Virus record (IMG/VR): IMGVR_UViG_3300017613_000718
Coordinates: 1 to 50,202 of that record
Reading direction: 5' to 3' (one strand)
Origin: a virus
Length of the DNA stretch: 50,202 nucleotides
Notes under the pieces: generated by a model
What the model was told of the DNA's origin: nothing
The model's input: the letters and a program-made list of their open reading frames with translations, nothing else
Database searches by the model: none
Translations under genes and position numbers: made by a program
Shown here: one piece after another, positions 1-49,168 of the stretch
Layout: every line of letters begins with the position of its first letter
Numbering within the stretch: the first letter of the stretch is position 1

Positions 1-121
1 TCGAGCCCGGCACCAAACGTGTCACCGAGATCCTCGACAGCAAGTTCCCATGCGACTTCAGCGTGAACTTCCGTGGCCAACGTGGCGGGGAAGCGAAGGT
101 GAACGACGAGATCCAGCTCAA
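1..121. repeat. terminal direct repeat copy 1 (identical to 50082-50202); marks circular closure or terminal redundancy
   Basis: Compared base by base with the last 121 nt of the window: identical. Confidence 0.97.
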
Positions 122-542
122 TATCAACCGCTTGCTGCTCGACCAGCAACCTTGGGCTATCGACGCAGGCTATGACCCCGACAACGTGGTGCTCACCATC
201 GACGACCACTCATGCGGCGGGTATACCCGTGCCACACCCATCGCTCTCTGGGCAGAGCACCTCGACGAAGCCACCATCCTCAACACAGTGCCTGCGAACG
301 GGAAGAAACCTGCCATCCACACCGTGGCTGAGATCATCGCGTATCACGAAGGCGCACGTCTGGAATACGAAGCCGCACCGCATGAAGAGAAAGTGAAAGG
401 TGACGCTCGTGCCGAGGTCGCCGCACGCATCCCGCTTGTGGGTGAGACTCAGTGGAACCACTCGAAGTGCGACAAGATGTGTGAGGTGCGAGACATTTGC
501 AATAAGCTTGTGCGCGAGCATGGGAGGCCGGGAGATGTTTGA
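1..542 (+). CDS. Cas4/RecB-family PD-(D/E)XK exonuclease, C-terminal part (same gene as 49676-50202)
   Basis: The frame is open from base 3. Motifs: GQVDV and EILDSKF (D...DxK nuclease motifs), QLNINRLL (Q-motif-like), and C-terminal CDKMCEVRDIC (Cx3Cx5C), which with the N-terminal Cys gives a 4-Cys Fe-S pattern. The GTG at 63 listed in the ORF track is not the true start. Confidence 0.75.
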   Translation, partial: EPGTKRVTEILDSKFPCDFSVNFRGQRGGEAKVNDEIQLNINRLLLDQQPWAIDAGYDPDNVVLTIDDHSCGGYTRATPIALWAEHLDEATILNTVPANGKKPAIHTVAEIIAYHEGARLEYEAAPHEEKVKGDARAEVAARIPLVGETQWNHSKCDKMCEVRDICNKLVREHGRPGDV

Positions 543-786
543 ACCTGTTGCACAATCTCAACGTATCAACAAAGCACTCAATCCCAAAATGACCCAGTTG
601 GCAGACGACTTGGCGAGCATCGCTAATGAACTGGAGGTCAGCTTAACCAGTTTGTACCAATATGTAGCGCTCCAGATATTACAAACGGTTCCATTAGCGA
701 GAATGGCAGCTGCGCGAGACGACGCTGCTGCTGTACGTCACGCAGAAGCCACGATGGACGACGGCTACGGATCGGTGGACGACTAG
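535..786 (+). CDS. hypothetical protein (83 aa)
   Basis: ATG 535 is preceded by gggaggccgggag. It overlaps the nuclease stop by 8 nt and lies in frame with track ORF 400..786. Confidence 0.55.
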   Translation: MFEPVAQSQRINKALNPKMTQLADDLASIANELEVSLTSLYQYVALQILQTVPLARMAAARDDAAAVRHAEATMDDGYGSVDD

Positions 787-788
787 CC

Positions 789-2729
789 ATGCCACGCACT
801 AAACGACACGTACCCGGCGTTGGCCCCTACACCGCCCCCTTACTATGGATCGGTGAAGCCCCCGGCCAGACCGAGGAGCGCCGAGGCATTCCATTCGTAG
901 GTGTCTCAGGCAAACGTGTGCGCCACCACCTCAGCAACCATGGCATCGATGCTGAGGACATTCGTATCAACAACGTCATCCCCATCAACGTGGGCAAGAT
1001 CACAGCTCAAAACCGTGACACCTTGTGCGCCTCCTGGTGGGACAACATCACTGACGACCTGGCTCGCATGTCTCCCCGAGTGATCGTGGCTTGTGGCGGC
1101 GTTGCGTTAAGGAGACTGACGAGCTTAACTGACATTACTAACGAATCGGGAGGGGTGATACACTCTAGCACTATCGGTGAAAGTATCACGATCAAGCAGC
1201 GCCGCCTTCCCACACACTTACCTGACGATACCCTTGTGATCCCCATCGTCCACCCTGCCGGCATCATGCGAACCAAGGTGGGCGGTGGCTGGGATCACTT
1301 CGATCGTATCGTGGCACGCATCGCACGCTACGCTACGGGTGCTCTCGAACTACGGCCCCCCAAGCCACATGTCGTCACTCGATTCAAGGCCGACGTACTC
1401 GACCGCGTCCTCACCGAAGCCAGCATCGTCTTCATCGACACCGAATACAACATCGACGACCACATCCCATATCTCATCGGCCTGACCACTGACAAGCTCG
1501 ACGAGCACACCGTCTACAGCTTCGCTCCACACGAGCGCTACGTCGATGTCCTGGCCAAGCACTTCGCCCGCTCAGACCTTCTAAAGGTAGCGCACAACTA
1601 CATGGCAGACGTGCAAGCTCTTCACACTCTAGGTGTGCGTTGGCACCACCCATCGTATTGCACGATGCTTGCTGCGAGCGCGCTCTATCCTGACCTACGA
1701 ATAGGCTTGAACCACGTTGCGCTTTTGTACCTAGACCACATCCGTAATTGGAAGGACATGGCGCACGATGATCCTGAATACAATGCGCTGGATGTGATGT
1801 ATATGCGGATGCTCTTCCCAACGCAACGTCAAGAGATAGCGGCTGCTGGGATGCAACGCCTCCTTACTGAAGAGATCTTCCCGGTCGCACCACTATGCAC
1901 TGCGCTTGAGGTTCGAGGGCTGAGAGTGGATGCGGATATCCAGGCTGAGATGATCGCTGAACGGCAGGCTGAATACGAAGCGACTGAGGCACGGGTCCAA
2001 GATGCTGTGAAGGAGATGTGCGCGAGCAAAAGCGCTGCGATAGAGATCGAGATCCAGCACTTCCAACACGAACACGATTATTATGAAGCGGGCGCTCGTC
2101 GAGCGGTCACCATCCCATGCCCGCTGCACCCTGACTACATCGGCGTGCGTAAGAAGCGATTCGCTACCACCACAGCATGCGAATGCGCCACGATCTACGA
2201 AGCCGTGGCACCCCAACGTGAAGGCATGCGCGAGAAGAAAGCGCAGGTTACCAAGCAGAAAACGAAGCTCAAGAAGTGGACCACCAAAGGCTTCAACCTG
2301 CTCTCGTCCCATGATCTCCGCTGGCTGTTGTACAATGAAGAGGGCTACGGTCTGCCGCCACAACGTAAAGATGGCCGCATCACGACCGACGCAGACGCCG
2401 TGGCCAAGCTGAAACTGATGCTCTATGACAATCGTGCGAAGATCAAATCTAAGTACCATCGCACGAACTGGGAGGAGATCACCAAGGTGCTCAAGGACAT
2501 CAAGCATTGTCAGCACCTGCGGAAGTTCATCAGCACCTTCTTGCAACCTCCAGTAGACGCGCATGGTATAGCGCACCCGCCATATAGACCATGGGGTGCT
2601 GGATCAGGTCGCCCAGCATCAGGGAAGGATGCGGTCGTGGCCTCTGATCGAGGCGCATCAGAGTACACGTTCAACGCCTTGAATATTCCAGACAAATGTC
2701 GGCGGATCTTTATCCCGCACAAACGGTGA
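789..2729 (+). CDS. family-A DNA polymerase, part I: UDG-like domain + 3'-5' exonuclease + N-terminal portion of the polymerase domain
   Basis: GEAPGQTEE..PFVGVSG..HPAG are family-4/5 UDG-fold motifs. FIDTEY, HNYMADVQAL and YNALDV are Exo I-III. The C-terminus GSGRPAS...FNALNIPDKCRRIFIP aligns by eye with Klenow TGRLSS..PNLQNIP..RRIRQAFIAP and stops just before motif A. Confidence 0.85.
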   Translation: MPRTKRHVPGVGPYTAPLLWIGEAPGQTEERRGIPFVGVSGKRVRHHLSNHGIDAEDIRINNVIPINVGKITAQNRDTLCASWWDNITDDLARMSPRVIVACGGVALRRLTSLTDITNESGGVIHSSTIGESITIKQRRLPTHLPDDTLVIPIVHPAGIMRTKVGGGWDHFDRIVARIARYATGALELRPPKPHVVTRFKADVLDRVLTEASIVFIDTEYNIDDHIPYLIGLTTDKLDEHTVYSFAPHERYVDVLAKHFARSDLLKVAHNYMADVQALHTLGVRWHHPSYCTMLAASALYPDLRIGLNHVALLYLDHIRNWKDMAHDDPEYNALDVMYMRMLFPTQRQEIAAAGMQRLLTEEIFPVAPLCTALEVRGLRVDADIQAEMIAERQAEYEATEARVQDAVKEMCASKSAAIEIEIQHFQHEHDYYEAGARRAVTIPCPLHPDYIGVRKKRFATTTACECATIYEAVAPQREGMREKKAQVTKQKTKLKKWTTKGFNLLSSHDLRWLLYNEEGYGLPPQRKDGRITTDADAVAKLKLMLYDNRAKIKSKYHRTNWEEITKVLKDIKHCQHLRKFISTFLQPPVDAHGIAHPPYRPWGAGSGRPASGKDAVVASDRGASEYTFNALNIPDKCRRIFIPHKR

Positions 2730-2794
2730 CGATATGATGCTCGTAGACGTGGCACTACCCAATCCAATCTGGGATTACATAGATGGAGGGATAG

Positions 2795-3043
2795 ATGATG
2801 AAGTGGAAGACGCTACTAGCGATAGCGGTACTGACGTTGGCACCACTGGTGTCGATGCTGGAGCAGGACTGTCAAGCGCGGTTCGACGCACCAAGCTCAA
2901 GAGTGGAGGCCACACAGACTGACGCACCCGATGTAATCCTGGATGATGGAGCACCGATCAAGGTAGCAGACGACATCTACCAACCGGTACCACTGGAGTA
3001 TGACCCGTTCACCGACGACGCTGATCCGATTAGTGATGATTGA
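2795..3043 (+). CDS. small secreted, very acidic protein (82 aa)
   Basis: SD ggaggg upstream of ATGATG. N-terminal signal-like segment KWKTLLAIAVLTLAPLVSM. The C-terminal half is D/E/P-rich. Confidence 0.6.
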   Translation: MMKWKTLLAIAVLTLAPLVSMLEQDCQARFDAPSSRVEATQTDAPDVILDDGAPIKVADDIYQPVPLEYDPFTDDADPISDD

Positions 3044-3121
3044 CCATTGAAGGCGGCTGGTGCGGCAACAAGTCGATGGCTCGACCTAAGGATGCGCTAG
3101 CCACGCATACCCGCACCGGTC

Positions 3122-3138
3122 GCCTTCGTTGAGAGGAG
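3122..3138 (+). repeat. boundary repeat copy 1 (GCCTTCGTTGAGAGGAG), contains the SD of the downstream gene
   Basis: This 17-mer is shared with 3323-3339 and 3754-3770. Confidence 0.9.
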
Positions 3139-3142
3139 AAAC

Positions 3143-3322
3143 ATGGAAGTAACAGGACAGGTAGGCAGAGAGCGGTTGGCTTCGATTATCGAAGGCAAGA
3201 TTCAAGCGCTTGAAAGTGACATCAACGTGTACCGGTTGTTCTTGAAACTGTTCGCCGACATCGAAGAAGGCAGTCCAGACGAGGAACGGTTGTGGTCCTA
3301 CTTCGTGAAGTTAGGCCGGTGA
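3143..3322 (+). CDS. hypothetical helical protein (59 aa; below the ORF-track cut-off)
   Basis: Hand translation: MEVTGQVGRERLASIIEGKIQALESDINVYRLFLKLFADIEEGSPDEERLWSYFVKLGR. ATG is 5 nt after gagaggag. The TGA is the first 3 nt of repeat copy 2. Confidence 0.6.
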   Translation: MEVTGQVGRERLASIIEGKIQALESDINVYRLFLKLFADIEEGSPDEERLWSYFVKLGR

Positions 3323-3339
3323 GCCTTCGTTGAGAGGAG
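3320..3339 (+). repeat. boundary repeat copy 2 (TGAGCCTTCGTTGAGAGGAG)
   Basis: Exact 20-mer, identical to 3751-3770. It begins with the upstream gene's stop codon and ends with the SD of the next gene. Confidence 0.95.
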
Positions 3340-3345
3340 ATACGC

Positions 3346-3750
3346 ATGAGTGAAGTGGATATCAAAGTATCTGAAGATCTAATTCGTGGGATCATCGAAA
3401 CCAAAGTCCAGACTGCTATTACGGAGGCGTTGTCCGAAGAGTCGAGCGTTGTCGAGAACGTTGTGACCGCCGCGCTGACGCAGAAGGTTAGCAGCACGGG
3501 CAGCGTGTCCCGCTACGCAACAGACAACAAGTTCTCGTACCTGGACGTGCTTTGCAAGAAGTTGATACGGGAAGCTGCTGAGGCGGCTATAGCAAGGTGG
3601 GTGGTGTCACGGAAAGAGGTGCTCGAAAAGGAGTTCTTGCGCCAGCTACAGACCAAGAAAACGTCCAGCCTAATGGTGCGAGCCTGCGTGGAAGGGCTGA
3701 CTGGAGCCGTGAAGGAGAAGTGGCGGTTCTCTGTGAGCTTCACTGATTAG
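3346..3750 (+). CDS. hypothetical protein (134 aa)
   Basis: Track ORF, preceded by the GGAGATACGC translation-initiation motif. Confidence 0.75.
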   Translation: MSEVDIKVSEDLIRGIIETKVQTAITEALSEESSVVENVVTAALTQKVSSTGSVSRYATDNKFSYLDVLCKKLIREAAEAAIARWVVSRKEVLEKEFLRQLQTKKTSSLMVRACVEGLTGAVKEKWRFSVSFTD

Positions 3751-3770
3751 TGAGCCTTCGTTGAGAGGAG
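3751..3770 (+). repeat. boundary repeat copy 3 (TGAGCCTTCGTTGAGAGGAG)
   Basis: Exact 20-mer, identical to 3320-3339. Confidence 0.95.
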
Positions 3771-3775
3771 GGGAG

Positions 3776-3997
3776 ATGGACGTAGGACTAAACCGACATC
3801 ACTCCAGGGTGTACTGGTTCATCAGGGACAACCCCGGAGCGCCACGGTCAACGACTATTGCCGAGGAGTGCGGTTACGAGATCAAAGACACTCGGCTGCT
3901 CCTCGCTGAACTTAGTAGACGCGGCTATGTGCAGCGAAGTAGACGCGGGCTATACCGACCCGCTGCTGACTTTCCAAGCATCGACCCAGCGCGTTGA
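3776..3997 (+). CDS. small winged-helix/HTH DNA-binding protein (73 aa)
   Basis: ATG 3776 follows gagaggagggg; the TTG at 3761 in the track lies inside the repeat. The pattern RVYWFIRDNPGAPRSTTIAEECGYEIKDTRLLLAELSRRGYV resembles MarR/wHTH recognition helix plus wing. Confidence 0.6.
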   Translation: MDVGLNRHHSRVYWFIRDNPGAPRSTTIAEECGYEIKDTRLLLAELSRRGYVQRSRRGLYRPAADFPSIDPAR

Positions 3998-4005
3998 GGT
4001 GAGGG

Positions 4006-4173
4006 ATGGAGATTGTATGGTTCGTGATTGGCTTCTTGAGCGGTGCTCTCGGGATTAACTATTGGTGGCTACGCTTCAACATGAAGAAGGCGCTGAGGAA
4101 TATGTACAACTTGGGCTACTCAGACGGGAAGCAGGGTGTGAGCCTGTGCCCGCCCCAACCCAGCGAGGAGTGA
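4006..4173 (+). CDS. small membrane protein (55 aa)
   Basis: Hand translation: MEIVWFVIGFLSGALGINYWWLRF... SD gaggtgaggg upstream. One predicted TM helix. Confidence 0.55.
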   Translation: MEIVWFVIGFLSGALGINYWWLRFNMKKALRNMYNLGYSDGKQGVSLCPPQPSEE

Positions 4174-4176
4174 GGG

Positions 4177-4266
4177 GTGACTATCTTCCTACTCAGTGGT
4201 GTTGTATTTGCGATACTGCTCGTAGTGGTGCTGGTGGTCACAGATACTGATGACTATGACTGGTAA
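4177..4266 (+). CDS. possible micro-membrane peptide (29 aa)
   Basis: GTG lies 4 nt after the previous stop and is preceded by gaggagtgagg. Sequence: TIFLLSGVVFAILLVVVLVVTDTDDYDW. Confidence 0.35.
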   Translation: MTIFLLSGVVFAILLVVVLVVTDTDDYDW

Positions 4267-4296
4267 CCCCCAACCCCGACCGGCAGTGAGGGTGAG

Positions 4297-4491
4297 ATGA
4301 CGTTGCACATTCCAGTGTGGGCTATACCGACAGCATTGACGGTGGGTTGCTTGTTCATGTTGTTCCGTCCCACAGGCGAGCACAACTGGCTGTCCGACGC
4401 CTTTACAACACTGGTGCGGCTGTTGTGGCTGATTCCAATCGGCTTCGTGTGGGCGATCTACTTTGCCGTGTTGTTGTGGCTGGCCGACTAA
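4297..4491 (+). CDS. small membrane protein, 2 TM (64 aa)
   Basis: Track ORF with SD gagggtgag and two hydrophobic helices. Confidence 0.65.
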   Translation: MTLHIPVWAIPTALTVGCLFMLFRPTGEHNWLSDAFTTLVRLLWLIPIGFVWAIYFAVLLWLAD

Positions 4492-4506
4492 CCCGAGGAG
4501 GACGGA

Positions 4507-4749
4507 ATGATTGAGGAGCGCGAACTACTAGACAGCATGCAAGATGCTTATCGTTTACGAAAACAACTCTCCATCGCCCTCAAGGCGTTGGGGGAGATCG
4601 CTAATGACCCGCACTGTGACTATTCCGTTGTGGCTGGCGGTGGATCATACGGCACTGGTGTAGCAGACGGTCACCGTTGCGCCGCCAAGAAAGCCCGCAC
4701 CGCAATAGCCAAGATCAAGGGGGGAGATGAGCAAAGAACAGACACTTAA
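4507..4749 (+). CDS. hypothetical protein (80 aa)
   Basis: Track ORF with SD gaggaggacgga. Confidence 0.7.
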   Translation: MIEERELLDSMQDAYRLRKQLSIALKALGEIANDPHCDYSVVAGGGSYGTGVADGHRCAAKKARTAIAKIKGGDEQRTDT

Positions 4750-4990
4750 AGACTTTGAGGCTGAGTTCCGCCAACTGTTCCCGGTTGGCATGCGAAGCGG
4801 CACAGACGCCACACTGGAGTTCATCATTGGATTCGAGTTGTTCAATACGCGACCGTACCACAACTACGAAGATTGGTCTCAGGGATGGCGACTGACCGTT
4901 GGCGATGTGGTCATTGAGACCGAATACTTGCACGAGTTGTTGCCGAAATACCGCAACCAACGCGACCAGGACGGAGGCGGGGATGAGTGA
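4727..4990 (+). CDS. hypothetical protein (87 aa)
   Basis: Track ORF with SD aaggggggag. Confidence 0.65.
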   Translation: MSKEQTLKDFEAEFRQLFPVGMRSGTDATLEFIIGFELFNTRPYHNYEDWSQGWRLTVGDVVIETEYLHELLPKYRNQRDQDGGGDE

Positions 4991-5138
4991 CGAACGCATC
5001 GAAACGTGCTGTGAGTGTGACGTACCCACCGGCAGGGCTGGCAGACACGATGACTCGCTCTATTGTGCCTGTGGCGAAGGTCCGTTCTGCGAAGAATGCT
5101 ATGACAAGCACGACGATAAAAGGTGCAGTGATGAGTAA
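4983..5138 (+). CDS. Cys-rich mini-protein (51 aa, starts MSDER)
   Basis: In frame with track ORF 4899..5138. ATG overlaps the previous stop (ATGAGTGA). Sequence: CCECDVP...CACGEGPFCEECYDKH. Confidence 0.5.
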   Translation: MSDERIETCCECDVPTGRAGRHDDSLYCACGEGPFCEECYDKHDDKRCSDE

Positions 5139-5310
5139 AGAACAACGGTATCGGTGGCTTATACGTTGTAAATGCGGCAAGCACTGGACGGTCGTCGTAG
5201 AAGGCCGTGATGGACCGACAGACAAGCAGGCGCGCTGCCGTCGATGTAAACAGGTATCCGATAATGTGTCGATGGGGATGCGCGGAACAGGACTAGTGCG
5301 CGATGAGTGA
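5131..5310 (+). CDS. Zn-ribbon mini-protein (59 aa, starts MSKEQ)
   Basis: In frame with track ORF 4987..5310. Contains CKCG...CRRC. The start overlaps the previous stop. Confidence 0.5.
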   Translation: MSKEQRYRWLIRCKCGKHWTVVVEGRDGPTDKQARCRRCKQVSDNVSMGMRGTGLVRDE

Positions 5311-5485
5311 CGAACGGAAGGCGCGGTGTAGCTACTGTCAAGGACTAGGTTGGTGCGAGGGGACTGCATCGGAACACGACCCGCGTTGTGACGGTAGCTG
5401 TAGCGTCGGCTGCCCCGTGCCAGTACAGATACAGGTTGAGTGTGAAGTGTGCGAAGGATTAGGTGTGGAGAACGACAATGACTGA
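5303..5485 (+). CDS. DnaJ-type zinc-finger mini-protein (60 aa, starts MSDER)
   Basis: Two CxxCxGxG motifs (CSYCQGLG and CEVCEGLG), as in the DnaJ cysteine-rich domain. Confidence 0.6.
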   Translation: MSDERKARCSYCQGLGWCEGTASEHDPRCDGSCSVGCPVPVQIQVECEVCEGLGVENDND

Positions 5486-6254
5486 CCAAGAACGCTGCGG
5501 CTGTGGGTTTGAGGATTGCCCGCTGTGCTACCCGGATGCCACCCAACCCCGCAAGCCGCTGCCGTGTAACTGCGGTAGTCAGTACAACCGCGAACGGCTA
5601 CGTGAAGCCGGTGAGCGGTTCGCGGAGAAAGTGGAAGAGCGTATGAAGCAAGACCGCAAGCCGCCGGGGGTGGTTTGGCTCGACTGCACTAACAGCAATC
5701 ACGGGTACTACGAACTCAAAATGGAGCGTACCCGCGACACCGACACCCCCTACGTCCCGCAGGCGGATTACGAGGTGATGCAAAAAGCATTCACGAAGCT
5801 GAGTAACGTGTTGGTCGGCTTCTACCCACCTGATATACCGTGGGACGCAAGCCTATCAGCAGACGAGATGGCATTGAATATTCGCAGTTCCCATGAGCAA
5901 CAACTCCGCGAGGCGAGGGAAAGGATCAAGTCATGGGAGGTCCATTGCAAAGACTTTGCCGAACAGGTAGATGAACAGACAACCAAAATTGAACTGCTCA
6001 AAAAAGCGGTAGCATCTCGACACGACTACGGCCCCGCATCACCGGGCGAGCAGGAATGGGCATGGCAACAGTTCTGTAGGCGTAGCGGTTGGGCACCTGA
6101 TTCGCATCCGTCAGCAAAGGACGCCTACGTCAACGGCTATTGTGACGGCGACACTTACAGTGAAGGTGACGAGCAACGCAAGATACTCCGCAAAGAGATC
6201 GAACAGCTGAAGAAAAAGCTAACCGCTGCCGACCAACGCTACTACGAAACATGA
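5478..6254 (+). CDS. hypothetical protein with N-terminal Cys cluster and coiled coil (258 aa)
   Basis: ATG 5478 overlaps the previous stop. N-terminus CGCGFEDCPLC...CNCG. The C-terminal heptad-like region ends in EIEQLKKKL. Confidence 0.7.
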   Translation: MTDQERCGCGFEDCPLCYPDATQPRKPLPCNCGSQYNRERLREAGERFAEKVEERMKQDRKPPGVVWLDCTNSNHGYYELKMERTRDTDTPYVPQADYEVMQKAFTKLSNVLVGFYPPDIPWDASLSADEMALNIRSSHEQQLREARERIKSWEVHCKDFAEQVDEQTTKIELLKKAVASRHDYGPASPGEQEWAWQQFCRRSGWAPDSHPSAKDAYVNGYCDGDTYSEGDEQRKILRKEIEQLKKKLTAADQRYYET

Positions 6255-6264
6255 GGAGGTTAAC

Positions 6265-6912
6265 GTGACCAAGGATCGAAAATACACAATCCTGATGGTG
6301 GTCTGCTTAGCTATCGCTATCGCCGCCATGACAGCCACCGTCATACGCGGCCAAACCACCGGCAACCTCAACGTGCTGTGGGACGCAGTAGACCACCCTA
6401 ACCTCGCTGCATACGAAGTCTCAGCCACCGATGTTGACCCCTTCACCACGACTGAAACCGCCGCCTCACTCACTGTGCCACCGTGCGCTGCAGCGATCGT
6501 CAACGTGCGCTCCTTGCCAGCTGACACCGATCTCAACACCCCGAGCCCTTATGCTGTGCTCGAAGCCTGGCCCGACATGGAAATCACTGAAGTCACACCG
6601 CTCGTTCTCGACCTCGCGAACAACACATTAGACCTCATCATCACAGGCCAGAACATCCAACCTGGCACCGACATCATCGCAGGTGAGGAAGGCACACCAA
6701 CCTGGGACTACGCATTCATCGAAGATCAAACAGATTGTGGCGCGATCACCGGCACGCTTATCGCACCAGATACAGCACAGATAGGTGACCAAGTGCTGTT
6801 GACCGTGAAGGCACCCGATGGGCAGACGGTGGTCGCACCGCAGATGGTGGCTGTGATTATGACGGTTGAGGATCTCGATTCACCGACCGGGTTGAGAGCT
6901 GTTCGTCCATAA
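6265..6912 (+). CDS. membrane-anchored protein with FN3/Ig-like repeats (215 aa)
   Basis: GTG start after gaggaggttaac. N-terminal TM segment ILMVVCLAIAIAAMTATVI. Beta-rich T/V/D repeats follow. Confidence 0.65.
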   Translation: MTKDRKYTILMVVCLAIAIAAMTATVIRGQTTGNLNVLWDAVDHPNLAAYEVSATDVDPFTTTETAASLTVPPCAAAIVNVRSLPADTDLNTPSPYAVLEAWPDMEITEVTPLVLDLANNTLDLIITGQNIQPGTDIIAGEEGTPTWDYAFIEDQTDCGAITGTLIAPDTAQIGDQVLLTVKAPDGQTVVAPQMVAVIMTVEDLDSPTGLRAVRP

Positions 6913-6935
6913 CCAACGTCCAAGGAGATACGCGC

Positions 6936-7439
6936 ATGTCAAAACCAATCGAGAAACCTGACCCCAACCCTGAGTACAAGGTCCGAGAGCTACCAGGTGC
7001 GCTCTATTGCCGCAAGTGCGAGGTCGCCAAGCTCACCGACCCACAAGACGAGCGGCTCTTCAGGCGCATCAGCATGCGAGGTAGAGGGCAAGATCCGTCA
7101 GTGGAGCAGATACTCAAGGATCTACCTGGCCTCACAGCCACACAAGCCAAGGCCACATTGGTGTGCTGGTTCAATTGGGGCTGGTACGACTGGGGCATCA
7201 CGCTCACGAAAGGGTGGCTCACTGATTGGGGACGGTCGGTCATGCAACAGCCTTGCACTTGCGAGGGGATGGAGCGTTTCGCTAAGTGCAGGGATCTCCC
7301 ACGAAGGCTGACTTGGGAACGTGTCATGGGGCGAATGGTTGAGTGTCTTGAACTGGACCCGCCGCCTCCACCTAAGGAAAAGAAGTCATCAAAGAAGTCA
7401 TCAAAGAAGAAACGCACACCTCGAACGGTGCAAACATGA
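6936..7439 (+). CDS. hypothetical protein with Lys-rich tail (167 aa)
   Basis: Track ORF preceded by GGAGATACGCGC. C-terminus PPPPPKEKKSSKKSSKKKR. Confidence 0.7.
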   Translation: MSKPIEKPDPNPEYKVRELPGALYCRKCEVAKLTDPQDERLFRRISMRGRGQDPSVEQILKDLPGLTATQAKATLVCWFNWGWYDWGITLTKGWLTDWGRSVMQQPCTCEGMERFAKCRDLPRRLTWERVMGRMVECLELDPPPPPKEKKSSKKSSKKKRTPRTVQT

Positions 7440-7756
7440 ACAAAACAGAAGCTACTTTCACTCGTGCTTATCCAGGTACTGAAGACCGCCAGCTGGTCAT
7501 CGAAGCTGGAATGGAAAAGGTGGGTGACACTTTTGATCCATGGATCGACATCATCGTGCGCGTGAAGATCGCACGAGAAGGTGATGTGGTCCGTTATCGA
7601 CGTGTCCGCACGCAGATCACCGGGATGGAAGCGTATGCGTTGCTCGACGAGCTGTTCACAGCCACGCACGCAGCGCACGGGCCGCATGTTGACCCGCGAC
7701 AAGGGCGGTTGCCGTTCGACGACACCGAGGACGACTCCAATGACCCGCCTCGTTGA
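7436..7756 (+). CDS. hypothetical protein (106 aa)
   Basis: Track ORF with an ATGA overlap to the previous gene. Confidence 0.65.
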   Translation: MNKTEATFTRAYPGTEDRQLVIEAGMEKVGDTFDPWIDIIVRVKIAREGDVVRYRRVRTQITGMEAYALLDELFTATHAAHGPHVDPRQGRLPFDDTEDDSNDPPR

Positions 7757-7883
7757 GTGGTGCGCGGGGGCACACAGCTTCGGTTGGGGTTTCGCCCTTG
7801 GTGTGAGCTGTACGTTAGGTGTTCTGGGACTGGTGGGTTGGTGGGTGTGGATAACACCTGAGGAGGACGAGGATGCCAGCTAA
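7740..7883 (+). CDS. possible small membrane protein (47 aa)
   Basis: Internal ATG of track ORF 7581..7883. Sequence: MTRLVEWCAGAHSFGWGFALGVSCTLGVLGLVGWWVWI. It overlaps both neighbouring genes. Confidence 0.35.
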   Translation: MTRLVEWCAGAHSFGWGFALGVSCTLGVLGLVGWWVWITPEEDEDAS

Positions 7884-8841
7884 CATCTACGTCGCCGCAG
7901 ACTTCTCACAAATGGAATCCTTCCTCACCGCATACTTCGCTCAAGACGACGTGATGTGGACCGAGCTACAAGACAGCCTCAAGCCTGGTGGCATCAAGGT
8001 CCACGCACTCAACGCCGCACTGCTATACGACATAGACCCTGCTGATGCCAAGACCCACGAGGTCGAGATCCAAGGCCAGATCACCACCGCATACAAAGGC
8101 GGCAAGAAGGTCTCGCATCTCATCAACTACGGCGGCCAGCCTAAGCTGCTGCACAAGCAACTGTGGCTACCATTGGAGTTCTGTTACGAAGCGCATCGTA
8201 AGATCACCGGCAAGTACGTCCCCACCACACGATGGCGAGAACGGCTGGTCGAGAAAGTCTACGGTGTGATTCAATACCTATGCAACTCTTGCGGGCACGA
8301 GTCCAATATCGGTGGAGTCTGTCCACATTGCACACGTTCCAATAAGCCTGTGCCGATGGTCTACCAAGGCTGGTTGGAGCCCCCGACACGCGAGCTGTTC
8401 ACACCTTTCTTGCGTCGTCGCCGGTATCTGGGTAGGCGTAATGATGGCGCGAACGCTCTCGCGTCCCAACTTCCCCAATCGTGTGGAGCTTCTATCTGGT
8501 ACCGCACGCTTCAACGACTGAACGGATTCACCGCTACCAGCGAAGGCTTTGAGCCTTGGCCTATCCCAACTGGATACCGTATGCTTACGCAACCTTATCA
8601 AGCATTCGAGTACCAGAACCCCATTGCCACCGGCACATACGACTCGTTTGTAGTTGAATGCGCTCCAGCTGACCGTGATACAATCGCCGCTTGGCTCGCG
8701 TGGACAATGGAACAAGCCTGGCCTCAGCTTGGTGGGATTCGTATCCCGGCTGAGGTTGAGTGGGGTGAGAATTGGTACGACCTACGTGAGATGGAGTACC
8801 AGGCTTTCAGCGCGACGAATCCTTTTGAGGAGGCAGCATGA
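7873..8841 (+). CDS. family-A DNA polymerase, part II (palm/fingers: motifs A, B, C) with zinc-ribbon insert
   Basis: ANIYVAADFSQMES is motif A, GGKKVSHLINYGG is motif B, and TYDSFVVE is motif C-like. An inserted CNSCG-x10-CPHC lies between motifs B and C. SD gaggaggacgagg. Confidence 0.85.
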   Translation: MPANIYVAADFSQMESFLTAYFAQDDVMWTELQDSLKPGGIKVHALNAALLYDIDPADAKTHEVEIQGQITTAYKGGKKVSHLINYGGQPKLLHKQLWLPLEFCYEAHRKITGKYVPTTRWRERLVEKVYGVIQYLCNSCGHESNIGGVCPHCTRSNKPVPMVYQGWLEPPTRELFTPFLRRRRYLGRRNDGANALASQLPQSCGASIWYRTLQRLNGFTATSEGFEPWPIPTGYRMLTQPYQAFEYQNPIATGTYDSFVVECAPADRDTIAAWLAWTMEQAWPQLGGIRIPAEVEWGENWYDLREMEYQAFSATNPFEEAA

Positions 8842-9296
8842 CCGAACGTCCGTTTCAAATCTCGCATGTTGTTAATGTACTTGATCAAATGGCAGACGGT
8901 GGTTACGGCACTCGTGACGCCGTGAACAATTTCCTCAGGCAGAAGTCTTCCTCGGCTGTGTCGATCGGTGACATGGGCAACTACAACATCAGACGGTACA
9001 CCTTGAACGAGGTGATAGCGCTGGCGGCGCTCGTGCCGTTGACCTCGGTGTTGGGTACACGTAACCGGCAGGACTTCACACCGAAACTGGTAAAGTTTCT
9101 TGACAGATTCGACTCGAATCTTCCAACCTTCACGCACCTATATGTAGTAAAGGCACTATACGTGCGGTCGAAGCCCATGATCTGCACCTCAGCTTTGTTA
9201 GAGGAGGACTTACCTGAACATGCCGTGGTCGTGGACCTTCAACGTGTGATCAAGGCTGCTTTGCGGTTGAAGGCCGATCCGGAAAGTGTGGCATGA
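8838..9296 (+). CDS. hypothetical protein (152 aa)
   Basis: Track ORF with an ATGA overlap to polymerase part II. Confidence 0.7.
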   Translation: MTERPFQISHVVNVLDQMADGGYGTRDAVNNFLRQKSSSAVSIGDMGNYNIRRYTLNEVIALAALVPLTSVLGTRNRQDFTPKLVKFLDRFDSNLPTFTHLYVVKALYVRSKPMICTSALLEEDLPEHAVVVDLQRVIKAALRLKADPESVA

Positions 9297-9643
9297 GCTG
9301 CGCGGGCATGTTCCGAATAATCTGGACCACCGACATGGTGCTACCTGACCTTAGCAAATATTGGAGAGACGCCATTGACTGGAGATGCGTGATGACCGGC
9401 CCTGACACAGAACAACACGGATACTGCCTCAACTGTGGTGACTACGACCTACTCGTCACCTCCACACCAGCTTACTGTGCCGCCTGCGCCGCCACCTGCG
9501 TCGAACGTGACCTCGTGGCGGCCTCGCATCAAGCCAAGGTGCCCGTCGCTCAGCACCGGCTCCTGGGCTTCAGGCACTGCATCCACCCGAAGATCTTGAA
9601 TGGCCGCTGCCTGGCCTGTGGTAAAACCCCTAAGGAGGACTGA
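9293..9643 (+). CDS. Cys-rich/Zn-finger protein (116 aa)
   Basis: Track ORF with CLNCG...CAAC...CLACG. ATGA overlap with the previous gene. Confidence 0.65.
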   Translation: MSCAGMFRIIWTTDMVLPDLSKYWRDAIDWRCVMTGPDTEQHGYCLNCGDYDLLVTSTPAYCAACAATCVERDLVAASHQAKVPVAQHRLLGFRHCIHPKILNGRCLACGKTPKED

Positions 9644-9644
9644 A

Positions 9645-9890
9645 GTGGACAAGACCATCTCTGTCACGTACCAATGCCTACAACCTATGCATCGAGATAA
9701 CTCTGAGCCTGGCCGGTGCCAGAAGCAAGCTGGCGTCAAGATGCGCGTGAACAGTCCCGCCTTCCCCCTGCCTGACATGCGGTGCCTTGAGCACCCCGAT
9801 GCTCCCATGGAGATCCTCGACATCCACGTCGAAGACACCTCGTTGATAGTAGATCCCCGCCAACAGCCCGTAGCCGTCAAGCCATCATGA
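9645..9890 (+). CDS. hypothetical protein (81 aa)
   Basis: GTG 9645 lies 6 nt after aaggagga, in frame with track ORF 9600..9890. Confidence 0.5.
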   Translation: MDKTISVTYQCLQPMHRDNSEPGRCQKQAGVKMRVNSPAFPLPDMRCLEHPDAPMEILDIHVEDTSLIVDPRQQPVAVKPS

Positions 9891-9891
9891 G

Positions 9892-11304
9892 ATGCCGTAC
9901 CTCGTTGACGACAACGACGCCTCCCGTCAAGCACTCATCGAGCTGCTCCAGGGCTTAACACCTGATAAAGTTGATGCTGAACTCGCGGCGACGGTCAAGG
10001 AAAGCATTGAGCTTGCATGGCAAGGGCAGCCTGACGCCTCATGGAACTCTATACGTGACGCATACTGTAAAGCCTTCGGCTCTGAAATCACGATCGCAGA
10101 GGCGTCGGTCACCAAGACCATACGTCCGTTCCGTGAGGTCGTCACCGACCAGTGGTTCAGCGACTACCTTGAATACTCCAGCGTGTCCGAAGCACCGGCT
10201 CAATTCCACTTCGGGGCCGTGCTCACTCTCATTGCAGGCTCACTACGAAGAAGGCCCTTACTCGACTGGGAGGCTCGTCCGACTTATTGCAACCTGTTCA
10301 GCTTGCTTGTCGGCTCTACCGGTTCACGTAAAGGTAGCGCGATCAAGACCGCTCAGTCCATGGTCCAGACCGTCCTTGCAACCAACGTCCTGCCCAATGA
10401 AGGCACCCACCAAGGGTATGCTGAGGCCCTGAAGCACCGCTACACAGACACAGGCATGAGCGACGGGCTGATCATCTCGCCCGAGTTCAAGGTGTTGTTG
10501 TCTAAAAATGAAAAGCACAAGGAAGCGCTCGTAGCCTGGCTCACTGACTGGTACGACTGCGATGATGTGTGGGAACGGGCGCTCAGGAGTGTGGACGAGC
10601 CCTACCTGCTAGAGCGCCTATGTGTGAGCGTACTCGGTGCGAGCAACATGCGGTGGCTCAGGCAAACACCTGAAGATGCGATCCTTGGTGGCTTCTTTCC
10701 ACGCTTCTTGATGTTCGTGCAACCTGAAGGGCTGAAGATCTGGGGCGATGCGTTCCCGAAGTTTAATCGCAAGCTATATGAGAAGTTGCAACAGGAACTT
10801 GAAGAACGCCTGGCGAACGTACCTGATGTCATCCGCTTCGATGCTGAAGGCCAGGCGTGGATGGAGGACTGGTACAAGGGGCCGCATCGCGGCTTGAGAG
10901 AATCTACCGGGGATGAGCAGATGCACGCCTGGTACGACCGCAAGCAGGCCGCATTGATGAAGGTGGCTATTATCTTGCAGCTCGTGAACGGTGGCCGACA
11001 GGATGTGGTCGAGGTCCAGTACCTGATAAAGGCGCAGAAGATCACCGACTGGTGCGACTGGTCGGTAGCCTATGTGTATAACAAGCTAGGTGTGGTGGGT
11101 AGTGGTGAGCTACTTGCTGACATCGTAGGCGTATTAGAGAGGCGTGCCCACCACCGCGCCACAGACCGAGTGGTCAAGAAGAACTTGTCACATAAGTATC
11201 TAGCGCCGATGATCAACAAGGGCCTGGCCTCGTTGAAAGAGATCGGCGTGGTCAAACGTGAGCACTCGGCTGAAGGTGGAGCGGAGTGGGTTTTGGTGGA
11301 CTAG
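9892..11304 (+). CDS. DUF3987-like P-loop NTPase (putative replicative helicase/initiator)
   Basis: NLFSLLVGSTGSRKGSAIK is a Walker A-like motif and GLIISPEF is Walker B-like. Size and layout resemble phage/plasmid DUF3987 proteins. No primase motifs were seen. Confidence 0.55.
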   Translation: MPYLVDDNDASRQALIELLQGLTPDKVDAELAATVKESIELAWQGQPDASWNSIRDAYCKAFGSEITIAEASVTKTIRPFREVVTDQWFSDYLEYSSVSEAPAQFHFGAVLTLIAGSLRRRPLLDWEARPTYCNLFSLLVGSTGSRKGSAIKTAQSMVQTVLATNVLPNEGTHQGYAEALKHRYTDTGMSDGLIISPEFKVLLSKNEKHKEALVAWLTDWYDCDDVWERALRSVDEPYLLERLCVSVLGASNMRWLRQTPEDAILGGFFPRFLMFVQPEGLKIWGDAFPKFNRKLYEKLQQELEERLANVPDVIRFDAEGQAWMEDWYKGPHRGLRESTGDEQMHAWYDRKQAALMKVAIILQLVNGGRQDVVEVQYLIKAQKITDWCDWSVAYVYNKLGVVGSGELLADIVGVLERRAHHRATDRVVKKNLSHKYLAPMINKGLASLKEIGVVKREHSAEGGAEWVLVD

Positions 11305-11579
11305 GCCAACCAGACGGTAACGAGCGCGTTGGTAACTGTGAACGCCGCCAGGTAGATCGTCACCGAACGTGGAAACGCCAGGTGTTGAAAGTCGTCCTCA
11401 ACCGACGCGGTGTACAAGAAGATGCTGTCACTCGTGTCGGCTTTGATCTCCACCGTGCCTCCTTGAGCAGTGCCCGTGACCGAGATGCCTTGAATGTTCA
11501 TCCAGGTCATGCCCAAGCTGGCGGCTGTGAAGGACTGGTCACTCCAAATGATGTCGTTACGTTGCGTAGTCGCTGCCAT
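11301..11579 (-). CDS. small beta-rich protein, last gene of the late arm (92 aa)
   Basis: Track ORF with SD gaggag 5 nt upstream of ATG. Its stop overlaps the stop of the plus-strand gene. Confidence 0.65.
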   Translation of the reverse strand: MAATTQRNDIIWSDQSFTAASLGMTWMNIQGISVTGTAQGGTVEIKADTSDSIFLYTASVEDDFQHLAFPRSVTIYLAAFTVTNALVTVWLA

Positions 11580-11614
11580 GATCTCTCCTCAATTCGCGTG
11601 TGTAGTATAGCATG

Positions 11615-38965: not shown

Positions 38966-39070
38966 GACGTAAATTCTTTCACGCAATAACTGTGCTTGAT
39001 GAGGGGGAGTTGTTGCGTAAAACCGAGGTCGAGAGTTAATGGGAACTATATTTCCCTCCCCCCTTACAAT

Positions 39071-39237
39071 CCCCCCTATAAAGAGTCTTTAATGATGCGG
39101 TTTGGGTTGGCACAGGATATCGTGAGAACGAAACTAAAGCGAAAGTGCATATAGTATTAGATCGATTTTGTGATAGTTAAAATTCCTTCAGCACATCTCA
39201 AATTTTGCGCTACATTTTTTGCAACTCTTTAGGGGGG
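39071..39237. repeat. inverted repeat CCCCCCTA(TA)AAGAGT / ACTCTTTAGGGGGG flanking an AT-rich 137-bp core
   Basis: 39071-39086 versus 39224-39237. The arms are complementary except for a 2-nt TA insertion. Confidence 0.8.
39151..39180 (-). promoter_or_regulatory. candidate sigma70-type leftward promoter
   Basis: Minus strand reads TTAACT-18 nt-TACTAT. Confidence 0.3.
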
Positions 39238-39256
39238 TACGGCGGTCGTGGTGGAA

Positions 39257-39272
39257 GGGGGGCCTACCCCCC
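39257..39272. other. perfect G6-CCTA-C6 hairpin
   Basis: ggggggcctacccccc, lying directly upstream of the first iteron. Confidence 0.85.
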
Positions 39273-39279
39273 GTTCATT

Positions 39280-39755
39280 TCGGCATTGTGGTACCTGTTT
39301 GCGCACACGGCAGTGGTGTTGTTGCGGTATTCGAGTACCTGTTTACCTTCTATCAAGCGACCCACGCGCCCACCTATTTCGGTATTGTGGTACCAGATGT
39401 ACCAGTTTACCGTGCTATTAAGGTATTGTAGTACCGTAATAGGTGCATCAAATGTGTCGCATACATGAATTAACCTTCGTACTCTACAGCTTATATCGGT
39501 ATTTCAGTACCAAATTGAGCTACTTCAAAATTTCAAGGTTAACCCATTTTGGCATGCGGTTTGCTAGGATATGTGGATATGCAATGAACATGCCATTTCG
39601 CTTAGCACGTAAGTAAGGCGAATGTAGTGTGACGCTGTCGCGCTGTGTGGCCGGTGTGGCGTGGCGATATACGCACGGGTGCATCTACCTTGATATAAAG
39701 ATCTCCGCTGTGTGGCCAGCTGGTGAGACGTGAGCACTATCGGCATTCGAGTACT
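39280..39755 (+). promoter_or_regulatory. array of six 16-bp iterons, consensus TCGGYATTSNRGTACC
   Basis: Copies: 39280-39295 tcggcattgtggtacc; 39324-39339 gcggtattcgagtacc; 39379-39394 tcggtattgtggtacc; 39420-39435 aaggtattgtagtacc; 39496-39511 tcggtatttcagtacc; 39740-39755 tcggcattcgagtact. Copies 1 and 2 are both followed by TGTTT. There is also a 12-bp direct repeat cgctgtgtggcc at 39641 and 39706. Confidence 0.85.
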
Positions 39756-39860
39756 TGATCTCTTTATATGGTGGCTTTCGCTTTATGTTCGTGCTCGCCG
39801 TTAGCAATAGGTGTGCCAAAGCATGGTTGAATAAAAGACTAGATTGGTCTACTGAAATTG

Positions 39861-39889
39861 TTGACTAGCGTGCAATTGCAGTGTATAAA
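39861..39889 (+). promoter_or_regulatory. strong sigma70-type early promoter
   Basis: TTGACT-17 nt-TATAAA, 29 nt upstream of the first plus-strand gene (SD aggagg, ATG 39918). Confidence 0.7.
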
Positions 39890-39917
39890 TAAGGCACACT
39901 TTCAATAGGAGGAAACC

Positions 39918-48749: not shown

Positions 48750-48908
48750 TCGAGAAGCGGGCTTTGCTCATGGCCTGCTCCTGCATCCACCCCACTCGAC
48801 GACAGGGTTGATTCGCCCTGGATGGTGCGCGGTCGGTTGTCCTCCTGCCGCGTTTCGTTGGGTGGGGATGGGTGTGGTTTCCCAAACGGCACACGGTACT
48901 CGTAATCT

Positions 48909-49155: not shown

Positions 49156-49168
49156 TCCCACAATGGCA

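Follow-up and report, generated by a model that had tools for sequence, protein, structure and literature searches.

A lineage-specific gene island in a variable slot of an ancestrally split phage DNA polymerase gene, and a local 21-nt repeat at three of its gene starts

The window, by which we mean the whole stretch of 50,202 nucleotides analysed, is a circular phage genome of ~50.1 kb (a second assembly is 99.995% identical) in which a family-A DNA polymerase gene is cut just upstream of motif A into two ORFs, polN and polC (Table 1). The split is ancestral and clade-wide, the gap between the halves is a variable slot, and the island of 17 ORFs (5.1 kb) that fills it here is a lineage-specific accessory locus unique to the window genome. 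Three adjacent island genes share a 21-nt repeat that is real, local and start-associated.

The ends of the two ORFs confirm the original prediction that the island lies between family-A polymerase halves. PolN matches the Pfam families UDG (4e-18), DNA_pol_A_exo1 and DNA_pol_A (profile positions 10-94) and ends, directly past the ...NALNIP...R.IFIPH segment, in FNALNIPDKCRRIFIPHKR and the stop, and polC opens with MPANIYVAADFSQMESF, which is motif A (VAADFSQME), and contains an inserted zinc ribbon (CxxC...CxxC) whose Cys 137, 140, 150 and 153 are invariant. The homologues of polC (n = 13) measure 302-355 aa each, and its identity to the nearest relatives is at most 45-49%; INPHARED held nothing related to the clade at the sequence level. 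All 31 related loci recovered have a split polymerase, and wherever both the end of polN and the beginning of polC were read, the split falls at an identical residue position (the polN C-terminal alignment took in seven relatives). Many of them have only 78-164 nt and no gene between the halves, so the split is older than the island, which overturns the proposal that the island invaded polA.

Across the relatives the gap spans 78-1385 nt versus 5143 nt in the window genome, and its cargo is unrelated between lineages (HNH_3, YAcAr, DUF4406 or Cys-rich mini-proteins). An HNH_3 gene lies 7 nt past the polN stop in the L007 and L008 loci, the L037 gap has the same length as theirs (1385 nt), and the L002 and L004 loci, ~75% identical in DNA, have different gap genes. 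When the 17 island proteins were compared with the relatives' loci by tblastn, none matched, whereas the flanking genes did. Rather than harbouring a fixed, syntenic version of the island, the relatives are without it altogether; aligning them, as had been proposed, revealed varying gap content but no conserved 20-mer boundaries. The accessory-locus reading is thus upheld as to the variable slot and the lineage-specific content, but not as to repeats serving as conserved cassette boundaries. Other slots among the conserved replication genes differ too, by 0.1-2 kb, so the polymerase split is no unique hotspot.

Free-standing homing endonuclease genes are known to split other genes, as with nrdA/mobE in phage Aeh1. 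The clade resembles such cases in that a conserved enzyme gene is cut at a fixed point into two functional ORFs, with an HNH endonuclease gene at the split in L007 and L008; however, the window gap has no endonuclease gene and most relatives' gaps are empty, so that an endonuclease origin is something we infer rather than observe. MEP401-type OM43 phages likewise have a split family-A DNA polymerase gene with a small inserted ORF (PMC10580990), that is, a polymerase encoded by a pair of ORFs that flank one or more unknown ORFs, an arrangement kept across a phage group, but in the window clade the slot holds from 0 to 17 genes (5.1 kb) and the N-terminal half carries a fused UDG domain.

Table 1. 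Coordinates of the polymerase halves, the island genes and the repeated or structured elements.
Feature	Position	Strand	Description
polN	789-2729	+	UDG domain, 3'-5' exonuclease, N-terminal part of family-A DNA polymerase
Island	2730-7872	+	17 co-oriented, tightly packed ORFs (A-Q); ORF list, junction table, JGI calls
Gene A	2795-3043	+	82 aa; N-terminus signal-peptide-like, C-terminal part acidic; no family match
Three-way-junction hairpin	3045-3131	+	Occupies A-B spacer
Repeat copy 1	3118-3138	+	GGTCGCCTTCGTTGAGAGGAG, 18/21; 4 nt 5' of gene B ATG (3143)
Gene B	3143-3322	+	59 aa, ORFan
Repeat copy 2	3319-3339	+	GTGAGCCTTCGTTGAGAGGAG; 6 nt 5' of gene C ATG (3346)
Gene C	3346-3750	+	134 aa, helical
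Repeat copy 3	3750-3770	+	Identical to copy 2; 5 nt 5' of gene D ATG (3776)
Gene D	3776-3997	+	73 aa, weak winged-helix (wHTH)
Gene E	4006-4173	+	Tiny hydrophobic protein; no family match
Gene F	4177-4266	+	29 aa, tiny hydrophobic; absent from JGI calls; no family match
Gene G	4297-4491	+	Tiny hydrophobic protein; no family match
Gene H	4507-4749	+	ORFan
Gene I	4727-4990	+	ORFan; its ATG holds first MSKEQ copy (4727-4740)
MSDER start repeat copy 1	4982-4996	+	GATGAGTGACGAACG; I/J junction (8-nt overlap ATGAGTGA)
Gene J	4983-5138	+	Cys-rich mini-protein
Gene K	5131-5310	+	Cys-rich mini-protein
MSDER start repeat copy 2	5302-5316	+	GATGAGTGACGAACG, exact; K/L junction
Gene L	5303-5485	+	Cys-rich mini-protein
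Gene M	5478-6254	+	258 aa, N-terminus Cys-rich
Gene N	6265-6912	+	215 aa, N-terminal helix then beta-rich part
Gene O	6936-7439	+	12-nt tandem duplication (KKSSKKSS) at 7379-7402
Gene P	7436-7756	+	ORF list, junction table
Gene Q	7740-7883	+	Hydrophobic; 11-nt overlap with polC start
polC	7873-8841	+	C-terminal polymerase part, Pfam DNA_pol_A profile positions 152-261

Searched against Pfam, PHROGs and NCBIfam, the island genes, put forward earlier as host-takeover or anti-defence candidates, are all ORFans. The JGI gene calls, taken from the twin assembly L014, miss ORF J and place a 107-aa ORF from 4987 there instead; genes J, K and L are linked via 8-nt overlaps (ATGAGTGA/ATGAGTAA). Several HTH families match gene D, though weakly (E 0.01-0.05), so the earlier wHTH label is kept in a weakened form, and no homologue of D was found among 5.8 billion proteins. 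The C-terminal ~85 aa of gene M form a domain common to 19 cluster representatives of varied length, and gene N, which has no Pfam match, gave an AlphaFold model of pLDDT 39 in which just a helix at the N-terminus and, after it, beta strands can be seen, leaving the earlier FN3/Ig-like label a conjecture. Among the island genes tested, gene C alone has close relatives elsewhere that match it over the full length: 19 proteins from unrelated phages are 56-67% identical to it, compared with the 45-49% maximum for polC and the nearest relatives. These homologues often adjoin RecT or exonuclease genes, which puts a caveat on the original statement that no island gene has a recognisable replication function.

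The 21-mer is a corrected form of an element said to precede three consecutive genes. The 20-mer TGAGCCTTCGTTGAGAGGAG is indeed exact at 3320 and 3751, but the third match is 17/20 at 3119 and the block shared by all three is 21 nt long. The element was also said to begin with the upstream stop codon, which holds for copy 2 only, as it includes the gene B TGA (3320-3322) together with the 8-nt SD-like GAGAGGAG. Copy 3 begins on the final base of the gene C TAG (3748-3750), so its TGA is a second in-frame stop, and in copy 1 TCG replaces TGA and there is no convincing gene end. The identity is sharp-edged and stops short of coding sequence, and gene C sits precisely between the two perfect copies, which enclose it from SD to stop; gene B compared with the gene C family HMM gave E 0.15. 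Allowing up to three mismatches on both strands, we found no further match to TGAGCCTTCGTTGAGAGGAG, and three matches arose in none of 100 shuffles. An SD-like purine run makes up the 3' 8-9 nt and is frequent across the window genome, whereas the non-SD 12 nt (GTGAGCCTTCGTT) recur at no other gene start, which sets aside a genome-wide SD context as the source of the repeat. The 21-mer precedes 3 of the 17 island genes, all adjacent and inside 650 bp; it is absent from every relative's locus and from IMG/VR, and the island borders carry no repeats.

All exact repeats of at least 15 nt in the 50-kb genome fall within the island, namely the 21-mer family and the MSDER 15-mer, and Markov controls predict ~0 exact 15-mer pairs there. 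A 12-nt tandem duplication (7379-7402), listed beside those repeats, likewise lies inside the island. The MSDER repeat is exact at 4982 and 5302, as predicted, and 8 of its 15 nt are the stop/start overlap ATGAGTGA, a design used at four successive junctions (I/J, J/K, K/L and L/M). The second predicted duplication, MSKEQ (4727-4740 and 5131-5144), does exist as a 13/14-nt pair but is weak, as two matches arose in 5 of 100 shuffles, within chance. A further start motif, GGAGATACGC, occurs in 5 copies versus 0.1 expected, 4 of them immediately before an ATG, and it is dispersed genome-wide on both strands, so the reuse of start-region sequence here is more than local and is compatible with functional selection. 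In four other phage contigs (L015, L017, L007 and L004), neighbouring small genes that are not homologous are likewise preceded by exact SD-to-start repeats of 17-20 nt, with a different sequence in each contig and an estimated chance expectation of ~0.01 per locus.

Copy 1 differs from the other two in its structural setting. The main stem of the hairpin in front of gene B comprises 18 bp (3048-3065 with 3111-3128, three G.U pairs included), and the hairpin folds with -46.4 kcal/mol (z -4.3) on the plus strand, compared with -42 kcal/mol (z -2.9) on the minus strand; Rfam and tRNA searches gave no match. Its 3' arm includes the 5' half of copy 1, and all three variant bases of that copy are paired within the stem, which suggests selection on RNA structure. 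Copies 2 and 3, in contrast, have no stem-loop (RNA fold z +0.5 to +1.2).

Our best explanation, held with about even confidence, is that the island is a lineage-specific expansion of the variable slot at the old split and that the 21-mers are footprints of ORF-insertion junctions. The repeats would be copies of one stop/Shine-Dalgarno junction before B, C and D, which follow one another but are unrelated. Genes would enter an existing junction with ORF precision by short-homology recombination, for which a Sak4-like annealase encoded at 46519-47424 is a candidate source of recombination capacity, and each insertion would leave a junction on either side of the newcomer, every copy acting as the ribosome-binding site of the following gene. 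As the gene enclosed by the perfect copies, C would have arrived last. For this model to work, donor and recipient must both have contained the junction, or else a further event must have copied it; the 21-mer is absent around the gene C homologues of unrelated phages (four loci read, 57-64% identity), so there is no known donor with matching junctions. Also counting against the model are the genome-wide dispersal of GGAGATACGC, the placement of copy 1 in a stable hairpin and the variation of other slots.

The main rival, possible but clearly the less probable of the two, takes the 21-mer for a regulatory element tied to gene starts (SAS- or stoperator-like), a selected site co-regulating B, C and D. 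On the mRNA it could be an extended SD joined to a binding site for an initiation-controlling protein or RNA, and on the DNA an asymmetric operator or a roadblock, to which the weak wHTH protein D, encoded directly behind copy 3, might bind. SAS/ESAS elements of Cluster K mycobacteriophages lie 3-7 nt ahead of ATG start codons, in 11-19 dispersed copies (Pope et al. 2011, PMC3203893), and SAS and the 21-mer are alike as short, asymmetric, one-orientation repeats just before the ATGs of non-structural genes (4-6 nt here), with an AGGAG core, conserved bases unable to pair with 16S rRNA, at times the upstream stop codon inside the element, and an imperfect inverted repeat before some copies. The sharp edges of the 21-mer, the dispersed motif GGAGATACGC and the imperfect 18-bp inverted repeat ahead of copy 1, loosely ESAS-like, also fit. 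However, the 21-mer is of another sequence and of 21 nt, has just three copies, all adjacent, and is absent from relatives; ESAS arms are 4-13 nt apart as against a 45-nt structured spacer at copy 1, D is without homologues and copies 2 and 3 share no conserved RNA fold. Since start repeats of unrelated sequence recur at adjacent genes in other phages, copying is simpler than independent regulators.

Mobile boundary cassettes of the PeSL kind, shuffled as modules via recombination and mini-circles, had been suggested by likeness and are improbable here. PeSLs in T4-type hyperplastic regions combine a strong sigma-70-like early promoter with a terminator stem-loop (Arbiol et al. 2010, PMC2839356); as there, the island has small ORFs, ORFan-like in the case here and non-essential in T4-type phages, between direct repeats in a variable region where recombination between copies is plausible, gap content turns over among relatives and the phage encodes an annealase. 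The defining make-up is missing, however: the sole promoter-like site in 500-12000 (5.6 expected) is at 11185, outside the island, and copies 2 and 3 lack the stem-loop. Such a boundary is missing at 14 of the 17 island genes, and the repeat is neither spread over the region nor common to relatives, IMG/VR or the other gene C loci, all of which argues against a conserved boundary and largely refutes PeSL membership. Slightly less probable still are three phage-specific promoters (T7 class-II or middle type) with transcripts starting in GAGAGGAG. T7-like phages cluster their promoters before early or middle genes, and the length of ~21 nt, sharp edges, intergenic position and single orientation would suit this pattern, but neither a sigma factor nor an RNA polymerase of the single-subunit type turned up when 20 of the largest predicted non-island proteins were searched against Pfam and PHROGs, three copies are few for 50 kb, and the implied leader would measure merely 12-14 nt. 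A chance or trivial product of the shared SD, in keeping with the common purine run and the MSKEQ pair, is refuted for the 21-mer by the shuffles, the Markov controls and the unique non-SD half.

The tolerance of the slot for inserted DNA would follow from the split itself. As the polymerase halves are already separate proteins, DNA between them would leave the enzyme unbroken and would ride the replication-operon transcript, and a possible means by which the site stays recombinogenic is suggested by one sister lineage, whose split harbours an HNH homing-endonuclease gene; with separate halves and a shared operon transcript, the slot may freely gain and lose cargo.

The two polymerase ORFs that flank the island, polN and polC, constitute a split family-A DNA polymerase: together they cover the exonuclease and polymerase domains (by Pfam, UDG, 3'-5' exonuclease and DNA_pol_A profile positions 10-94 in polN, and DNA_pol_A positions 152-261 in polC). 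PolN ends in ...FNALNIPDKCRRIFIPHKR followed by its stop codon, and polC starts with MPANIYVAADFSQMESF, which is motif A. Among 5.8 billion proteins searched there are 13 polC homologues, all 302-355 aa long. The split was present in 31 of 31 related loci fetched, and its residue position was identical in each relative in which the polN end and the polC start were read; it is therefore ancestral to the clade, and polA was not invaded by the island, contrary to one option of the original prediction. We also observed a strongly acidic variable tail (for example DDEDNDEN, DDEEEDRE) after the conserved ...IYVPH of polN in relatives L002, L003, L004, L010 and L013, absent from the window, L001 and L007, which may serve in docking of the polymerase halves or of another partner. 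PolC harbours an inserted CxxC...CxxC zinc ribbon (residues 137-153), the four cysteines of which are invariant in 14 of 14 clade members. Split polymerases with inserted ORFs are already known (PMC10580990), and the fusion of a UDG domain to the polymerase N-terminal half is of enzymological interest.

In a comparison of the polN-polC gap across the clade (see table), the slot of the window exceeded every other one seen by a factor of 3.7. In the relatives with minimal gaps (L031/L032 and L022/L023; 78-99 nt) no gene lies between the two polymerase ORFs, and gap cargo, where present, is unrelated from lineage to lineage: L002 and L004, whose DNA is ~75% identical, differ in their gap genes. 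No endonuclease gene, as in a homing-endonuclease split, is found in the window's gap. When the 17 island proteins were compared by tblastn with the relatives' loci there were no matches, while the flanking genes do match, and searches of Pfam, PHROGs and NCBIfam with the island proteins gave essentially no matches. Variation of 0.1-2 kb is also seen in other slots between conserved replication genes, showing that several slots are variable and the split is one of these. Repeats of at least 9 nt, such as a mobile element with repeated termini would have, were looked for at the island borders and not found, and the relatives' gaps contain no analogous boundary repeats, only short chance-like matches. 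Apparent natural presence/absence pairs among the loci fetched, L015/L016 and L017/L018 included, proved to be one and the same sequence. Megablast of window positions 1-12000 against INPHARED found no close relative, a polC search of IMG/VR and a GTDB genome scan for close relatives found no match, and the nearest relatives in the databases searched have 45-49% polC identity. At that distance the comparison failed to reveal variable content between conserved boundaries. While the repeats are real and the description of the island as an accessory, fast-turnover locus stands, its invasion of polA is wrong and conserved shuffling boundaries are unsupported.

The window has identical 121-nt ends and therefore represents a circularly assembled, complete phage genome of ~50,081 bp, to which a further public assembly (L014, JGI 3300017527) shows 99.995% identity. 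The + strand from ~40,000 through the origin to ~11,600 carries early, recombination and replication genes, one of them for a Sak4-like annealase, and the - strand between 11,615 and ~39,000 the structural genes, for terminase, portal, capsid and an 1812-aa protein. The divergent intergenic region between the structural and early arms has low GC (45%) and carries 19-nt direct repeats and inverted repeats; it is probably a promoter/operator or origin region. The 1812-aa protein, without Pfam or PHROGs match, has a counterpart of 1800-2600 aa in all relatives, with its position kept and convergent with a DUF3987 gene.

Features of the window and of related or gene C homologue-bearing loci (positions in nt of the respective sequence)
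Feature	Locus	Sequence or content	Position or size
polN	window		789-2729
polC	window		7873-8841
Zinc ribbon in polC	window		8281-8340
Island	window	17 ORFs, A to Q	2730-7872
21-mer copy 1	window	before gene B (ATG 3143)	3118-3138
21-mer copy 2	window	before gene C (3346-3750)	3319-3339
21-mer copy 3	window	before gene D (3776-3997)	3750-3770
Three-way-junction hairpin	window	A-B spacer	3045-3131
MSDER 15-mer	window	GATGAGTGACGAACG	4982, 5302
Second start motif	window	GGAGATACGC	3336, 6924, 49279 (+); 34136 (-); 28454 (+)
Tandem duplication, gene O	window	AAGAAGTCATCA x2	7379-7402
1812-aa protein	window		11615-17053 (-)
Divergent intergenic region	window		39000-40100
19-nt direct repeats	window		39277, 39376, 39417
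Inverted repeats	window		39371/39432, 39073/39224
Sak4-like annealase	window		46519-47424
Early-gene hairpins	window		48783-48876, 46107-46210, 49165-49239 (+)
Identical ends	window		1-121, 50082-50202
SD-to-start repeat	L015	AGAAGAGGTAACGATTATGG	8426, 8596
SD-to-start repeat	L017	GAAGGGTGGGGAGTGATG	10890, 11087
SD-to-start repeat	L007	GGAGTTTGATGATGGGT	1436, 1608
SD-to-start repeat	L004	GAAGGGGGGAAGTGATG	575, 1008
14-16-nt block	L004	ATGAGCGCGGCGAAG	1689, 1972, 2373
Three-copy intergenic repeat; CsrA homologue upstream of gene C homologue	L020		3568-5610, 9256-9543
Gene C homologue neighbourhood	L019	C-DUF3799-RecT	
Gene C homologue neighbourhood	Virgibacillus phage Mimir87	between 'DNA repair protein' and RecT	
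polN stop-to-polC gap	relatives		78 (2 loci), 99 (2 loci)
polN stop-to-polC gap	relatives		122, 137 (3 loci), 149, 153, 164, 189
polN stop-to-polC gap	relatives		261 (3 loci), 407, 649, 901, 978
polN stop-to-polC gap	relatives		1075 (2 loci), 1385 (3 loci)
polN stop-to-polC gap	window		5143
Gap cargo	relatives	301-aa ORFan	
Gap cargo	relatives	DUF4406 protein	
Gap cargo	relatives	Cys-rich mini-proteins	
Gap cargo	relatives	four small genes + YAcAr protein (one set)	
Gap cargo	L007/L008	HNH_3 endonuclease gene, 7 nt past polN stop	1385-nt gap, same in L037

The repeat preceding genes B, C and D was confirmed as a 20-mer with exact copies at 3320 and 3751 and a 17-of-20 match at 3119; neither strand of the window has a further site of up to three mismatches, and three such matches were reached in none of 100 shuffles. 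The block common to the copies extends to 21 nt and ends 4 nt (B), 6 nt (C) and 5 nt (D) before the ATG of three consecutive genes. All exact repeats of at least 15 nt in the genome fall within the island; they are the 21-mer family, the MSDER 15-mer and the 12-nt tandem duplication of gene O, against ~0 expected there from Markov controls. The last 8 nt of the 21-mer, GAGAGGAG, form an SD-like purine run, and SD-centred 9-mers (for example AAGGAGGAC and GGAGATACG) are found at many starts in this genome, but the 5' part, GTGAGCCTTCGTT, is found at none of the other starts, so the 21-mer is more than a shared SD. The original prediction had the element begin with the upstream stop codon, which is true only of copy 2 (TGA): the stop of gene C is the TAG at 3748-3750, immediately 5' of the TGA of copy 3, and copy 1 has TCG where TGA is expected, with no convincing gene end there. 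The motif was found neither in 13 related loci nor on either side of the gene C homologues in phage contigs L015 to L018, and a 19-mer search of IMG/VR gave no match. A degenerate motif, YCGTTGRGNGRDG, with extra sites at 7750, 48855 and 49205, was designed after seeing the data and is not relied on.

Position and form of the 21-mer match the Start-Associated Sequences (SAS) of Cluster K mycobacteriophages (PMC3203893), as it is likewise asymmetric, on the + strand in all three copies, 4-6 nt before the ATG and endowed with a GAGGAG; it may thus be a selected SAS-like element at the starts of B, C and D. SAS, however, number 11-19 copies over the non-structural half of the genome and share a consensus, GGGATAGGAGCCC, that is conserved across phages and tied to gene families, whereas the window has three copies within 650 bp of a different sequence that is absent from relatives. 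The analogy may indicate how the 21-mer works, not that it belongs to the SAS. The PeSL of T4-type phages are defined by a promoter and a terminator (PMC2839356). Each PeSL contains a strong sigma-70-like early promoter and a terminator stem-loop, and copies are common to related genomes at the borders of insertions, deletions and replacements. By contrast, a scan of 500-12000 restricted to sigma-70-type promoters found one promoter-like site, at 11185, and none at the repeats; a hairpin is present at copy 1 only and lacks a U-tract; and the 21-mer was in none of the relatives searched. With no sigma-70-like promoter, no stem-loop at copies 2 and 3 and only 3 of 17 island genes served, the 21-mer is not a PeSL. 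Stoperators of Cluster A mycobacteriophages, the asymmetric intergenic binding sites of the phage repressor, come in many copies (roughly 24-30 in L5), far above the three in the window. A T7-type system, in which a single-subunit RNA polymerase uses a ~23-nt promoter before several genes, is likewise at odds with three copies, and none of 20 large proteins scanned matched an RNA polymerase or sigma family (several large ones being matchless altogether).

Two further observations favour a selected start element. The second start motif has five copies versus 0.1 expected, four of them followed by an ATG after 0-2 nt; these four are spread over different modules and both strands. Moreover, the A-B spacer is filled by a stable three-way-junction hairpin (-46.4 kcal/mol, z -4.3, with a weaker fold on the opposite strand), of which copy 1 forms the 3' arm. 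Each of the three positions at which copy 1 differs from copies 2 and 3 is paired in the stem, which hints at selection on RNA structure; the hairpin may be a processing site or a U-tract-less terminator. No stable fold was predicted at copy 2 (z +1.2) or copy 3 (z +0.5), and no known RNA families or tRNAs were matched. The + strand has further highly stable hairpins within or between early genes (z -3.7 for 48783-48876 and z -5.3 for 46107-46210); all three are without Rfam match and may be processing sites or terminators, and the 3' arm of 48783-48876 contains TTCGTTGGGTGGGGATGG, which is loosely 21-mer-like. As for the other start-region repeats, the MSDER 15-mer is exact at both sites, with eight of its bases being the stop/start overlap ATGAGTGA, a design common to the I/J, J/K, K/L and L/M junctions, whereas the MSKEQ pair is within chance (two matches in 5 of 100 shuffles). 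The perfect tandem duplication in gene O, encoding KKSSKKSS in a basic C-terminal tail, is a sign of recent slippage.

Gene C is the exception among the island genes: its well-conserved family comprises 19 proteins of 56-67% identity in unrelated phage contigs, where the homologues sit in arrays of small early genes, often beside recombination genes. This identity to foreign phages far exceeds the 45-49% between the backbone polymerase and its nearest kin, which fits a recent arrival. The gene C model is helical (pLDDT 68.7), its sole match is an uncharacterised Siphoviridae protein, and a PDB sequence search gave no match. In contig L020, a CsrA homologue lies immediately upstream of the gene C homologue, and an intergenic repeat of 21-33 nt, present three times and accompanied by a GC-rich hairpin, has a PeSL-like look. 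Among the other island proteins, D is a weak winged-helix protein with no homologue anywhere searched; M has a C-terminal ~85-aa domain common to 19 cluster representatives, whose members carry no informative Pfam domains; and N starts with a helix and is otherwise beta-rich in a single-sequence model that is unusable for an FN3/Ig call (pLDDT 39). Paralogy of B, C and D was considered and rejected, as 8 of 20 residues agree between the B and C N-termini but B scores a non-significant E 0.15 with the HMM of the gene C family; so was that of J and L (E 0.01, in a tiny search space only).

Identity between the repeat copies breaks off sharply and stops short of the coding regions, and gene C lies precisely between the two perfect copies, which frame it from SD to stop. 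Contigs L015, L017, L007 and L004 all likewise have a 17-20-nt exact repeat, contig-specific in sequence, before adjacent small genes encoding non-homologous proteins, against a chance expectation, by our estimate, of ~0.01 per 20-kb locus for two exact copies of a 17-mer. That the junctions are identical while the gene bodies are unrelated speaks against duplication with later divergence and for copying of the junction itself, which would be a DNA-level process. In the simplest reading, an ORF would have recombined into an existing junction, thereby copying it, and the duplicated junction would have been kept as a working ribosome-binding site. This makes copying compatible with a selected element, the retained junction being the ribosome-binding site. 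In L004, a 14-16-nt block also recurs at three further sites in different registers. As a broader and rather unlikely extension of junction copying, 'junction capture' would have stop/SD-to-start junctions serve as annealase-driven recombination substrates for single-ORF gain in densely packed arrays of small genes, the split polA as a safe landing pad holding 0 to 17 genes, and the 17-21-nt repeats in five unrelated contigs as its general signature.

Each kind of feature is already known, and it is the combination of a split polymerase with inserted ORFs and start-associated repeats that is new. If duplicated junctions mark single-ORF insertions, they would provide a searchable signature of recent gene gain in any phage genome, and gene C would be a recent acquisition linked to recombination modules. 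If the 21-mer is a selected element, the island would offer a minimal three-gene system for working out the role of start-associated elements, which were described in mycobacteriophages in 2011. The origin and turnover of small ORFan genes in phages are poorly understood, and this clade provides a clean natural series in which one fixed split in an essential polymerase holds a slot ranging from empty to 17 genes.
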